A stretch of 64,000 nucleotides of DNA, taken from positions 148,218 to 212,217 of the forward strand of contig JACPSZ010000007.1 of NCBI GenBank assembly GCA_024860875.1. The letters are read 5' to 3'. Each line of letters begins with the position of its first letter. Within the stretch, counting starts at the first letter, position 1. This DNA comes from Nitrososphaerota archaeon. GTDB taxonomy: Archaea; Thermoproteota; Nitrososphaeria; Nitrososphaerales; UBA57. A program made the translations under genes and the position numbers. The notes under the pieces were generated by a model. That model was not told where the DNA came from and made no database searches. It saw only the letters and a list, made by a program, of their open reading frames with translations. Below, one piece after another: positions 45,060 to 62,841 of this stretch.

Positions 45060-45151
45060 GGGCCTGTAGCCTAGCATGGATAGGGCGTCGATCAAAGAGC
45101 GTAAGCCTTCGGAGCCGGAGGTCGTGGGTTCAAATCCCACCAGGCCCGCCA
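45060..45151 (+). tRNA. tRNA-Arg(UCG) with a 14-nt intron at non-canonical position 29/30; CCA encoded
   Basis: Hand fold: acceptor gggcctg/caggccc, D arm gcct..gggc, T arm gtggg-ttcaaat-cccac. Removing 45091..45104 (atcaaagagcgtaa) gives anticodon arm tcggc-cuucgga-gccgg. BHB geometry: central helix gcgu(45085-88)/gcgu(45099-102), with bulges cg|a and aa|g. Confidence 0.8.
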
Positions 45152-45201
45152 AAATTCAGAACCCATTTAGCCTAGTATGTTCATCTAGCGTGTGCCATTA
45201 A

Positions 45202-45939
45202 ATGCAGAAACTCTTGGCGCTGTCGATAGTAGTAGTTCTTGCTATTACTGTCTTAGCTGGCATTGGTATTGTTAATCTGTCCCAGAACGGAAATACTTTG
45301 GCCGCAGCTGAGCCCAAAGCAAGAAATCAAATTATAGCAAAACCCTCGCAAGAGGCTGATAAGAATAATCAAATTCCGATTCCTGATCAAATACCGGTGC
45401 AGCAGGCAAAACCAGAGCCCAAGGCTGACATTCCAGATGCCGTGAATCCTCAACTTCCTGCTCAAGACCCGGCAAAGGCTGCCCCTCGCGACCTGCTTGG
45501 CGAAACTGTGACATTGGGAGAGGCACGACGCCGGTCTAATTTCACAGTGCTTGTCCCGCCAATTCTCCCTGAGAACAGAACGCTCCAGCAGGTTAGGTTA
45601 GGCTCATGGAGCTCTCCAGACAGAGTTTCGCTCTTCTACTCAGGTGGAATGATGATAATCGAGGAGAAGGCTAACCCGAATGTAGACCCTGCGCTACTAG
45701 CTGAGAATGCGATAAGGGAAAATCGCTTGAGCTCAAGTTTATACAAACCCAAATTGCAACGTTTCATATACGCTGGAGCCGATGGTTTTGGCTACGACCC
45801 ATGGTTATATGGAGAAGGAGACGACAGGGTAGTTTCCCCCGGCGCTATCTCTTTTATATGGCATGGTGCCCATTACGCTATAATAGCTAACCTGTCCTAT
45901 AACGAACTGGTAAAAATTGCCATTTCAATGCTGCAATAG
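45202..45939 (+). CDS. Exported/membrane-anchored hypothetical protein (N-terminal TM, Pro/Gln-rich linker)
   Basis: 245 aa with the signal-anchor LLALSIVVVLAITVLAGIGIV. Confidence 0.45.
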   Translation: MQKLLALSIVVVLAITVLAGIGIVNLSQNGNTLAAAEPKARNQIIAKPSQEADKNNQIPIPDQIPVQQAKPEPKADIPDAVNPQLPAQDPAKAAPRDLLGETVTLGEARRRSNFTVLVPPILPENRTLQQVRLGSWSSPDRVSLFYSGGMMIIEEKANPNVDPALLAENAIRENRLSSSLYKPKLQRFIYAGADGFGYDPWLYGEGDDRVVSPGAISFIWHGAHYAIIANLSYNELVKIAISMLQ

Positions 45940-46023
45940 CAGGTTATGGTTTCTTAAACGCAGAAACCAGACAGATAGACGTCAAAACATACACTAAATG
46001 TGTAGCATGGTTCTTTACAACAT

Positions 46024-60295: not shown

Positions 60296-61143
60296 AATCT
60301 CAGAGCCCCTCCAAAGAGGAATGCAAGCAATCCAAGCATCATGCCCCCAAGAGCAAGTTTCTTCACCTTAATGGCTCCCTCAACCGAATAATTCCTAATT
60401 ATCTTGGCTGAAATGTAAATGAAGAATGCGTCTGTAACTAGCACGAGTACTGCATAAACGATACCCGTGATTCCTAACATCAACGGAAGTAAGCTGGTTG
60501 AAACTGCAGCGAGGAAGAACAGAGCTCCAATTCTTGAGGCCATCTTCTCCCCTTTAGTTATTGCGATTGATCGAACATCTCTTGCTTTATCGCCTTCGAC
60601 ATCAGATATTGTTTTGACTACTTCCCTTCCCGTCCCTGCCAAAAACGATGTCAGAGCAAGAGACCACAGCATGACATCGCTTCCCTTTCCAATTGCGACT
60701 CCGCCAAAAACATATGGGACTGCCATAGATGCTGCAACCATCATGTTTCCTGATAATCCTCGCTTTTTTCCCCAGTAGCTGTAACCCCAAGCTATCAGGC
60801 CGAAGAGAGCTGCAACCGCAATATTTGTTAGACTTATGAGAGATGCTGAAGCGAAACCGATCAGCAGAAGAACAGCTGCAAACATGTTAGCCTGCATCAA
60901 GCTCATAGTTCCGCTTGGAATGGGTCGATTAGGACTGTTAATCCTGTCAATCTCAATATCGTAAACATCATTGATGACCATAGAATAAGATGACACAAAG
61001 AATCCCGTGAAGAAGCCTAGCATTGACTCCAAAGACAATATCTTTGATGGTTCAACGACAGCAACCCCAACTATGACAGCGAAGCCAATCATGACGGAGT
61101 TTACAGGTCTTATCAGCGAAATCAGCGCTGACGCTTTTGCCAT
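60292..61143 (-). CDS. UbiA-family prenyltransferase, digeranylgeranylglyceryl phosphate synthase-like
   Basis: 283 aa with about 8 TM helices and the motif NDVYDIEIDRINSPNRPIPSG. Confidence 0.8.
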   Translation of the reverse strand: MAKASALISLIRPVNSVMIGFAVIVGVAVVEPSKILSLESMLGFFTGFFVSSYSMVINDVYDIEIDRINSPNRPIPSGTMSLMQANMFAAVLLLIGFASASLISLTNIAVAALFGLIAWGYSYWGKKRGLSGNMMVAASMAVPYVFGGVAIGKGSDVMLWSLALTSFLAGTGREVVKTISDVEGDKARDVRSIAITKGEKMASRIGALFFLAAVSTSLLPLMLGITGIVYAVLVLVTDAFFIYISAKIIRNYSVEGAIKVKKLALGGMMLGLLAFLFGGALRF

Positions 61144-61701
61144 TTAGGTCGGTCCCTGAAACCTTTCCTTGGCAACCTTGTAGTAGATTATCTCTCCCCT
61201 TCTCTCGACTACAGCAATTATAGGCGTCTTCCCCATTCTGGTTATCTGCGCAATGGATTTTGACAATGCAGTGATAGGAACTTCTGTACCTTCGTTCAAA
61301 CCAAAGATGACAAACTTTGCTGATTTAGTACCATGCTCTCCTCTATCGTAAACTCTGAAATCAACGCCAAAGCCAAAGCCCTCCTTTGGGACATATCCTC
61401 TAGAGCGTAAATCTCTGTAAAGCAGAAACCTAGTCCATGCATTAGCATCATTCTTCAAAGATCTTTCAACAAGATAATGAAAATCAAGTTTCTTCGCATC
61501 TTCCTTGATCTCAAGTTTAGCAATGTAAGCAAGGTAGAGCATTTCATAGTCCGCAAGTAATAATGAGGAATCTTCCTTCTTGCCATATCCTTTTGACTCC
61601 AGCAGAGCTACAATATTTTCATCTTCCACAAGAGCGCCTTTTGCTGTAAGTTTAGCAGAGATTACTTGCTCTATCTCTTCAGACATAGAACTTGCATTCA
61701 A
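61144..61701 (-). CDS. endA: tRNA-splicing endonuclease (catalytic subunit)
   Basis: 185 aa. Has LYRDLRSRGYVPKEGFGFGVDFRVYDRGEHG.KSAKF and a downstream Lys (RMGKTPIIAVV). This fits the Tyr/His/Lys catalytic pattern of EndA. Confidence 0.85.
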   Translation of the reverse strand: MNASSMSEEIEQVISAKLTAKGALVEDENIVALLESKGYGKKEDSSLLLADYEMLYLAYIAKLEIKEDAKKLDFHYLVERSLKNDANAWTRFLLYRDLRSRGYVPKEGFGFGVDFRVYDRGEHGTKSAKFVIFGLNEGTEVPITALSKSIAQITRMGKTPIIAVVERRGEIIYYKVAKERFQGPT

Positions 61702-61767
61702 ACATATCTTGCGATTTAAGGATTCTATGGTTAGGATTATTATAGGGAGTTAAGATCGTCAGATGCT

Positions 61768-62841
61768 ATGCCTAACTTCTTCGAAGAGAGGACAGTAAAA
61801 TGGGAAAAAGACAGAGTTGTAATGATAGACCAGTTGAAACTTCCAACACAGTTCCGCTATCTTCAATGTACAAACCATAACCAAGTTGCAGACGCTATAA
61901 AGAAGATGATCATAAGAGGGGCTCCAGCGATAGGCGTTGCAGCCGCTATGGCGCTGGCTCTGGCAGCTAAAAACAGCATGGCCAAGACTAAAGACGATTT
62001 TATCAATGACCTTAACGCTGCTGCAGAGGTAATTAGAGCTACCAGGCCTACGGGAGTCAACCTGTTCTGGGGCGTTAAGCAGATTCTGCAGAAGGCCCAA
62101 GCCTCTACATCGAACATCGAAACTCTGAAGGAGGAGATAGTTGCAGAGGCGAACAGGCTTGCCGATGAAGACGTGGGGTTCAATCGAAAAATAGGGTTCT
62201 ACGGCGCATCACTTCTAGAAGACGGCGACACAGTGCTGACCCACTGCAAATAGCCCAAAGGCTAGCAGAGTGCGGGCGCGCTGGCAACCGTCGGATACGG
62301 GACTGCCCTCGGAGTAGTTAGAGGGGCACGAGAGCAGGGAAAATGCATCAAGGTCATTGCAACGGAGACTAGGCCACATCTTCAGGGTGCAAGATTGACA
62401 GCGTATGAGTTGAAGGAAGATGGTTTTGATGTCACGCTAATAGCGGACACCATGGTCGGCTATGTAATGAAGAAAGGGCTTGTCGATAAGGTGATTACAG
62501 GCGCTGACAGGATTACGAGGGATGGCTATGTCTTTAATAAAATAGGAACCTATCAATTAAGCATACTTGCCAAGAGGCACGAAATACCGTTCTTCTGCGC
62601 TGCTCCAATATCATCCTTTGATCCTGAAAGGACTTTTGATCAAGTTGTTATAGAGGAGAGAAATGTTAAGGAGATTACCCATATAGGCGGGAAGAGGATA
62701 GCGCCAAAGGGCATTGCCATTTTTAATCCTGCATTTGATGCTACTCCTCCAGATTTGATTTCTGCGATAATTGCAAACTTTGGGATAATCGAGTCTCCTA
62801 TAGGCGAGAACTTGAGTAAGAAACTTCGTTTGGGTAAATGA
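61768..62841 (+). CDS. mtnA: Methylthioribose-1-phosphate / ribose-1,5-bisphosphate isomerase (eIF-2B alpha/beta/delta family), interrupted by a putative 21-nt BHB intron: join(61768..62249,62271..62841)
   Basis: ORFs 61768..62253 and 62395..62841 are in the same frame. The whole 62272-62394 stretch also reads as family sequence (AGALATVGYGTALGVVRGAREQGKCIKVIATETRPHLQGARLTAYEL). N-terminal motifs are DQLKLP, RGAPAIGVAAA and RPTGVNLFW. Confidence 0.85.
62250..62270 (+). other. Putative bulge-helix-bulge intron within the mtnA-like mRNA
   Basis: The insert is atagcccaaaggctagcagag. The central helix is ctgc(62244-47)/gcag(62265-68), with 3-nt bulges aaa and agt and an inner hairpin tagcc-caaa-ggcta. 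Excision restores THCNAGALAT. Confidence 0.65.

Follow-up and report, generated by a model that had tools for sequence, protein, structure and literature searches.

We examined a 64,000-nucleotide (nt) stretch of a Nitrososphaerota archaeon of the UBA57 lineage (GenBank assembly GCA_024860875.1, contig JACPSZ010000007.1, positions 148,218 to 212,217 of the forward strand), which we call the window. It holds genes for tRNA-Arg(TCG), tRNA-Pro(GGG), and tRNA-Tyr(GTA), together with the methionine-salvage gene mtnA, and all four genes are interrupted by short insertions of one stereotyped build. There are seven of these introns: six in tRNA genes (one in Arg, two in Pro, and three in Tyr) and one in the mRNA of mtnA. 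Very probably, the seven insertions are ordinary archaeal bulge-helix-bulge (BHB) introns, that is, substrates of the tRNA splicing endonuclease.

Using a generic scan for a T-arm plus an acceptor stem, we found exactly three tRNA genes in the window, with starts at 45060 (+ strand), 57449 (- strand), and 58562 (+ strand). They occupy 45060..45151 (+) for tRNA-Arg(TCG), 57343..57449 (-) for tRNA-Pro(GGG), and 58562..58722 (+) for tRNA-Tyr(GTA), the last of which has orthologs in the related loci L082-L084 (loci of related genomes are given by L numbers throughout). When the six tRNA introns were excised in silico, ARAGORN returned three perfect cloverleafs, Arg-TCG, Pro-GGG, and Tyr-GTA. The 3' CCA is encoded in the Arg gene (45149-45151) and is not encoded in the Pro and Tyr genes. 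Searches of the unspliced DNA were less informative. At gathering thresholds, Rfam yielded no tRNA match anywhere in the window; at a permissive E value, there was a sub-threshold tRNA match for the Arg gene. A transfer-messenger RNA candidate at 57340-57449 on the - strand (E value of 9e-9, 30 bits, below the gathering score) was rejected, as only its acceptor and T-arm portions aligned and the locus is that of tRNA-Pro; a scan that relies on E-value cut-offs would be misled here. Under default settings, ARAGORN detected the Arg gene alone and labelled it "tRNA-???". With introns allowed, it miscalled the Pro gene as Leu-CAG, and at low stringency it produced 137 noise matches.

Each intron can be written as the exon strand of a central helix, a 5' bulge, an inner hairpin, the intron strand of the central helix, and a 3' bulge, with a slash at each predicted cut. 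The Arg intron (45091-45104, +; 14 nt) lies at position 29/30 and reads gcgt cg/A tc-aaa-ga GCGT AA/g, with a 3-bp outer helix. Pro intron 1 (57416-57402, -; 15 nt) lies at position 30/31 and is a relaxed BHB without an outer helix (tgcc ac/A gc-taaa-gc GGTG AA/c), while Pro intron 2 (57394-57379, -; 16 nt) lies at the canonical position 37/38 (ctgg gg/A tct-gct-aga TCAG AA/c). Of the three introns in tRNA-Tyr, all on the + strand, intron 1 (58577-58597; 21 nt) enters the D-loop after nt 15 (gctc ag/A ggat-cctaaa-gtcc GAGA AA/c), intron 2 (58614-58635; 22 nt) is at position 30/31 (cttc cg/A tcttc-ctaaa-gaaga GGAG AC/g) with a 2-bp outer helix, and intron 3 (58643-58686; 44 nt) is at the canonical position 37/38 (ctgt ag/A ... 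ACAG AT/a). The inner hairpin adjoins the BHB core in six of the seven introns, Tyr intron 3 being the exception. In unspliced DNA, an outer helix lies next to the core in two of the seven (Arg and Tyr intron 2). Pro intron 2 and Tyr intron 3, both at 37/38, take the anticodon stem as their outer helix. Since the neighboring 30/31 intron interrupts this stem, which is whole only with that intron gone, splicing in these two genes is probably ordered. Neighboring introns are known to need ordered removal, and tRNAscan-SE 2.0 iterates for such cases (PMC8450103).

The seventh intron lies within a protein-coding gene. Two open reading frames (ORFs) that flank 62250-62270 on the + strand both match Pfam IF-2B, and excision of these 21 nt, which carry an in-frame TAG, results in a 350-residue protein that matches the NCBIfam models of MtnA (S-methyl-5-thioribose-1-phosphate isomerase) with E values of 1e-118 to 1e-133. 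Exon 1 (61768..62249, +) ends with ...VLTHC followed by AA, and exon 2 (62271..62841, +) starts with the T of an Asn codon and then encodes AGALATVGYGTALG... At the predicted splice junction (62249/62271), ...CACTGCAA is joined to TGCGGGC..., and the protein across the junction reads ...VLTHC-N-AGALATVGYGTALG..., which restores the conserved motif T[HQ]C-N-AGALAT. The Asn codon of this motif is split after its second base and adjoins the conserved Cys, which is reportedly the catalytic residue in work on Bacillus MtnA. The intron itself (ctgc aa/A tagcc-caaa-ggcta GCAG AG/t) is present in the window's version in independent assemblies from four sequencing runs. The MtnA sequence assigns the window to Nitrososphaerota, and by this protein the closest species-representative genomes are two metagenome-assembled genomes (MAGs), L052 (90% identity) and L060 (84% identity). 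Relative to L052, exon 1 has a ratio of nonsynonymous to synonymous substitution rates (dN/dS) of 0.10 and exon 2 one of 0.044, and the latter value indicates strong purifying selection downstream of the in-frame stop. For a full-length enzyme to be made, the intron must be removed.

A first-pass annotation of this DNA had proposed all seven introns, and its description agrees with the sequence in detail. Each intron lies where it was placed, and the seven 5' bulges and seven 3' bulges are exactly as claimed. The six inner hairpins that it listed are also exact, as are the central helices, which have four of four pairs in six introns (several with G.U pairs) and three of four in Tyr intron 1. 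Finally, five of the seven inner hairpin loops contain AAA, as it had stated.

At least 10 sequenced lineages carry the mtnA intron at one and the same codon (the window together with L001-4, L052, L060, L068, L013, L019, and L085-L088). Among 77 related loci taken from species-representative genomes, its length is 23 nt in L052, 22 nt in L060, 32 nt in L068, and 30 nt in L013 and L019; the remaining loci have an uninterrupted T[HQ]CNAGALAT. In four diverse representatives whose DNA was read, the intron measures 29 nt in L085 (a Ca. Methylarchaceae MAG), 28 nt in L086, 29 nt in L087, and 21 nt in L088. Lengths thus span 21 to 32 nt and are mostly not multiples of 3. The intron side of the central helix is GCAG in all ten lineages examined. 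Its exon side is CTGC, CTGT, or TTGC, reflecting synonymous changes in the Cys and His codons that retain a G.U pair. A T-A pair always lies next to the core in the inner hairpin, and the rest of the hairpin consists of 5 to 9 bp of unrelated sequence that is always paired, with loops that include CAAA, AAAAAA, TGAAA, ATAATC, GTTTTC, and GTAA.

We also searched the exon-1 product against a large protein collection and inspected the best 120 cluster representatives, which have 47 to 100% identity. In 106 of these 120 best homolog clusters, the protein ends at most six residues past THC. The endings take the forms ...THCK-stop, ...THCKW[FLSP]..stop, and ...THCN-stop, and many of these proteins come from contigs tens to hundreds of kb long. 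Public annotation splits mtnA at the intron into an ORF of 161 to 170 amino acids and a second ORF, with names such as "hypothetical protein" or "MtnA, partial". THCRWPN is the ending of two of the 120 clusters, and THCSTG stands at this site in the intron-less L005, which hints at variants in which the split codon is not Asn. In a neighbor-joining tree (without support values), the intron-bearing lineages are basal to a large intron-less Nitrososphaerales clade, and L005 is nested among intron-bearing lineages. This topology tentatively suggests an old gain of the intron with losses afterwards. Judging from these comparisons, the mtnA intron arose long ago, is spread widely through Nitrososphaerota, and also occurs in at least one other TACK (Thaumarchaeota, Aigarchaeota, Crenarchaeota, and Korarchaeota) lineage. 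We regard its existence and its spread as close to certain. The first-pass call of an mRNA intron was therefore correct; its credibility had been credited to the plan shared with the tRNA introns, but it comes from this comparative evidence instead.

The tRNA introns could be followed in relatives as well. In orthologs of the tRNA-Arg(TCG) gene that lie downstream of mtnA (L006-L060), the intron sites are 29/30, 37/38, the variable loop, and the D-loop (about 50 nt). Two such introns occur in some of these orthologs and none in others. The use of at least four sites, or of none, indicates rapid intron turnover within the phylum. The ortholog of the window's Arg intron in L060 shares its bulges and has a central helix with Watson-Crick pairs throughout (ACGC), whereas its hairpin, tcc-ttt-gga, is another one. 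For tRNA-Tyr, a metagenome scan with the 3' exon recovered only three very close relatives (L082-L084) and accordingly little covariation. All three Tyr introns are kept in these relatives. In intron 1 of L084, a T.G pair of the hairpin has become T-A, and in intron 3 of L082, a C-to-T change preserves the pairing of an internal 7-bp hairpin. L084 lies on a metagenomic contig of 1,011,907 bp (Ga0194128_10000001), which would permit a near-complete catalog of tRNA and mRNA introns.

What, then, is the shared build? In the BHB motif, two 3-nt bulges lie on opposite strands with 4 bp between them, and the cuts fall after the second bulge nucleotide, a layout that matches the anticodon-intron helix of canonical 37/38 introns (PMC4033280, PMC12397907). 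No RNA can be a substrate of the archaeal splicing endonuclease without presenting it. This geometry, with two 3-nt bulges and a 4-bp helix between them, is found in all seven introns. Since the uniform build is the BHB definition itself, it reflects recognition by the endonuclease and not common descent. In the transcript, four exon nucleotides would pair with four intron nucleotides, leaving a 3-nt bulge on either side of the helix. A splicing endonuclease of the (alpha-beta)2 type, which has broad specificity and is the one reported for this phylum, would cut both bulges behind their second nucleotide, with the exons then joined by an RtcB-type ligase. When this cutting and joining is carried out in silico, it leads to products expected to function, namely, three cloverleafs and full-length MtnA. 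Thaumarchaeota have an alpha2-beta2 endonuclease and many non-canonical tRNA introns (PMC4090602), and relaxed motifs are substrates of (alpha-beta)2 and epsilon2 enzymes (PMC4090602, PMC4033280). Of the two explanations offered in the first-pass annotation, strong recognition constraints is thus the one that is supported, given that the plan is that of a textbook BHB.

The same annotation had held that the first intron nucleotide and the first nucleotide of the 3' bulge are always A. This is true of all seven introns in the window. The exon-fixed bulge nucleotides vary, and those supplied by the intron (nucleotide 3 in the 5' bulge and nucleotide 1 in the 3' bulge) would be free to vary and are A here. 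For the first intron nucleotide, A in seven of seven has a probability of about 1e-4 given the composition of the window and 1e-3 given that of the introns, and the values for the 3' bulge are likewise about 1e-4 and 1e-3. Both rules extend to the orthologous Arg 29/30 introns of five genomes (cg/A ... AA/g or AT/g). They are broken, however, elsewhere in related genomes. The tRNA-Arg 37/38 introns of L007 and L058 begin with T; those of L006, L007, L058, L013, and L019 have TG/a or TA/a as the 3' bulge; and the variable-loop introns of tRNA-Arg start with C (L012) or T (L045). Among the exon-1 clusters of MtnA, 88 end in K (first intron nucleotide A or G) and 16 end in N (T or C). The L086 intron is confirmed as aa/T, and the first position is T or C in about 15% of mtnA intron lineages. 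From these sequences, A at the intron-supplied bulge positions is a preference and not a law. In crystal structures of EndA with RNA, bulge nucleotide 1 is held in an Arg/Trp pi-cation sandwich and nucleotide 3 stacks on the catalytic His (PMC12397907). A preference for A may fit these structural roles. The five AAA loops are above chance by a rough calculation, and the A-rich hairpin tips are a feature of the lineage and not a requirement.

Several observations weigh against reading the seven insertions as BHB introns cut by the endonuclease. That the introns are cleaved, that the exons are ligated, and where exactly the junctions lie is deduced from sequence, and the pocket preference for A is a proposal by analogy with the crystal structures. 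An outer helix is missing from three introns (Pro intron 1, Tyr intron 1, and that of mtnA), which thus count as relaxed motifs. The AAA loops in five of the seven are unexplained by enzyme recognition, and they are not conserved in relatives. Unconstrained minimum-free-energy (MFE) folding with 12-nt flanks gave the BHB core for only three of the seven introns (Tyr introns 1 and 2 and mtnA). Alternative pairings compete, and exon-exon pairings often win in the folds of the mtnA and Arg orthologs; MFE folding is no useful test for helices of 4 bp. Lastly, a gene of the EndA family lies divergent from mtnA at 61144..61701 (-), with matches to Pfam tRNA_int_endo_N and tRNA_int_endo and to TIGR00324 above its cut-off. 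Its presence next to mtnA speaks for the BHB reading, but when its product is aligned to 1a79 and 5x89, a residue other than His occupies the position of the catalytic His125 of M. jannaschii, and we found no second EndA paralog or catalytic subunit within the window. The catalytic-His column is Ser, Pro, or Ala in all of the approximately 61 orthologs (among L001-L088), and the Tyr and Lys columns are kept. By these alignments, the product is probably non-catalytic and serves an (alpha-beta)2 enzyme as its structural, beta-like subunit.

We considered whether the common plan could be due to chance or to circularity, with boundaries having been placed by the plan itself and the motif being frequent in any sequence. 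On both strands of the window, the descriptor, which we took as X4, N2/A, a simple hairpin, the complement of X4 allowing G.U, and A N/N, matches 149 sites compared to 153 ± 12 in ten dinucleotide shuffles. A scan of this kind was the refutation check named in the first-pass annotation, and its outcome in the window is a match rate no different from random: by itself, the BHB descriptor has no signal as a detector. Moreover, the junction of Tyr intron 3 is ambiguous by 1 nt from exon sequence alone. Yet for the other six introns, the cloverleaf or the conserved Asn codon leaves a single possible pair of junctions, without recourse to the plan. Relative to random window sites of the same lengths, where a 4/4 helix occurs at 2.0% and at least 3/4 pairs at 14.9%, finding six introns with 4/4 pairs and one with 3/4, in register with exon-fixed junctions, has a P value of approximately 5e-11. 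In addition, we applied an exon-context filter that retains a compact BHB whose excision fuses two frames, each open for at least 100 codons. With it, the sole true site in 64 kb is the mtnA intron. Two further loci passed the strict filter and were false, one at a junction of unrelated genes (UbiA/RFC) and one in an alternative frame inside an intact 437-amino-acid ORF, and a permissive version of the scan was swamped by adjacent operon genes. We therefore give practically no credence to chance or circularity. The practical lesson is that a BHB descriptor becomes specific only with an exon-context test, be it restoration of a cloverleaf or fusion of ORFs. A separate doubt applies to mtnA, where the interruption could reflect not an intron but decay of the gene into a pseudogene, a faulty assembly, or recoding or bypassing during translation. 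The window's insert is 21 nt long and in-frame with its TAG, and gene callers produce two ORFs, for which NCBI uses the names "hypothetical" or "partial". However, more than 100 protein clusters show an interruption at this site, as do the 10 examined DNA lineages, which come from unrelated studies, and the frame would be shifted by inserts of 22, 23, 28, 29, and 32 nt. Purifying selection is strong on both exons (dN/dS of 0.10 and 0.04), and the insert always forms the central helix and the hairpin. These readings of mtnA as a pseudogene, a recoding site, or an assembly artifact are very unlikely.

The other explanation in the first-pass annotation was the spread of one intron family. On a reading of this kind, the seven introns would be copies of a single mobile family that recently spread among tRNA genes and into mtnA, and would be alike by descent. 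Tyr introns 1 and 2 have the 8-mer TCCTAAAG in common, the CTAAAG of Pro intron 1 also occurs in both of them, and C(T)AAAG is found at the end of five of the seven hairpins. The introns are A-rich (37% versus 27.5% in the window). All three tRNA genes in the window bear introns, at 2 per gene compared to 0.4 in 11 surveyed Thaumarchaeota. Nevertheless, TCCTAAAG is the longest word common to any pair of introns, and a common word of 8 nt turns up in 8.5% of trials with shuffled introns, so that similarity among the seven is not significant (Monte Carlo P = 0.085, in a test that is weak for such short introns). L084 does not keep the 8-mer, its orthologous Tyr intron 1 reading TCATAAAA, and the Arg intron ortholog in L060 has a TTT loop. 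Loop aside, the features in common are those that any BHB needs. The mtnA intron is also old, being shared by lineages at approximately 50 to 60% protein identity whose hairpins are wholly different, so that a recent copy of one of this genome's tRNA introns is not its source. We consider a recently spread family quite improbable and find this part of the first-pass explanation unsupported.

The neighborhood of mtnA is itself conserved. The order endA (-), mtnA (+), tRNA-Arg(TCG) is kept across Nitrososphaerota whether the mtnA intron is present or not (L005-L081 and L086-L088). In most genomes, an intron-bearing tRNA-Arg(TCG) gene directly follows mtnA; in the window, this gene is 17 kb away, at 45060. 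Where the order is kept, two endonuclease substrates adjoin the gene for an endonuclease subunit. We rejected the adjacency of endA and mtnA as evidence of a link with the intron because it is equally present in intron-less lineages.

Canonical and non-canonical BHB introns of archaeal tRNAs were reportedly described by Marck and Grosjean in 2003. From such known introns, those in the tRNA genes of the window show no difference in kind: they have the same bulges, 4-bp helix, and cut sites, with multiple introns per gene, ordered removal when introns abut, and likewise locations at 29/30, 30/31, 37/38, and in the D-loop. The tRNAscan-SE 2.0 software has a separate BHB covariance model for Thaumarchaeota, and a survey of 498 tRNA genes in 11 thaumarchaeal genomes reported 93 canonical and 107 non-canonical introns (PMC8450103). 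No tRNA gene with three introns was found in those 11 genomes, and all 16 such genes were in Thermoproteales (PMC8450103). The Tyr gene is a modest extension of the known thaumarchaeal range. The transposed intron families of Thermoproteales (Fujishima 2010), in the part of that work relayed by PMC4090602 and PMC4033280, are alike in comprising many short non-canonical tRNA introns. The idea conveyed there is that similar introns spread between sites, whereas the seven introns of the window have no significant similarity.

For the mtnA intron, there is a parallel in the cbf5 pre-mRNA intron of Crenarchaeota (Watanabe 2002; Yoshinari 2006; Yokobori 2009, PMC2738675), which is also a short relaxed BHB inside a coding sequence, in hosts with a hetero-oligomeric endonuclease, and with a patchy distribution marked by gains and losses. 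The mtnA intron likewise lies inside a coding sequence, and its excision restores a conserved frame, but the host gene is mtnA and not cbf5, the phylum is another, and splicing is a prediction from sequence. In Cenarchaeum and Nitrosopumilus, cbf5 is free of introns (PMC2738675). A BHB intron in HVO_1309 of Haloferax volcanii resembles that of mtnA as an EndA substrate in an mRNA, being neither tRNA nor rRNA (PMC7714728). It differs in lying in the 5' untranslated region (UTR), in a euryarchaeon with an alpha2 enzyme, whereas the mtnA intron interrupts a codon of the coding sequence. The 2020 study named cbf5 as the only further BHB intron reported besides its own 5' UTR case (PMC7714728), and more archaeal mRNA cases are deemed likely in reviews, which name none (PMC7714728, PMC10485636). 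Our literature search, which was limited in reach, found no description of an mtnA intron, and it is likely unreported. In short, the tRNA introns are known in kind, and the mtnA intron, with solid comparative support, is probably a new instance of a kind already known.

Splicing of HAC1 and XBP1 in eukaryotes also involves protein-only cleavage of an mRNA at paired stem-loops, followed by joining by tRNA ligase or RtcB. As in mtnA, a coding frame is changed or restored by splicing. It differs in its nuclease, which is Ire1 and not EndA/TSEN, in its motif, and in being a regulated stress response. One could propose that the mtnA intron is undescribed, ancient (in Nitrososphaerota and some other TACK lineages), and retained because endonuclease-dependent splicing gates the formation of active MtnA. 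Taken as a whole, this proposal is unlikely in our view, and a regulatory role for mtnA splicing is speculation by analogy. If true, it would represent a regulatory mRNA splice in archaea with logic analogous to that of HAC1/XBP1.

The shared build of the seven introns is itself ordinary, and what they mean for archaeal biology lies mainly with mtnA. For more than 20 years, cbf5 has been the sole archaeal coding sequence known to need endonuclease-mediated splicing, and mtnA would join it as an independent second case, from another phylum. With more than 100 protein clusters and unrelated inner hairpins, mtnA offers a natural mutational series on recognition by the thaumarchaeal endonuclease. 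Meanwhile, the systematic splitting of mtnA by annotation pipelines misrepresents the methionine-salvage capacity of these MAGs.

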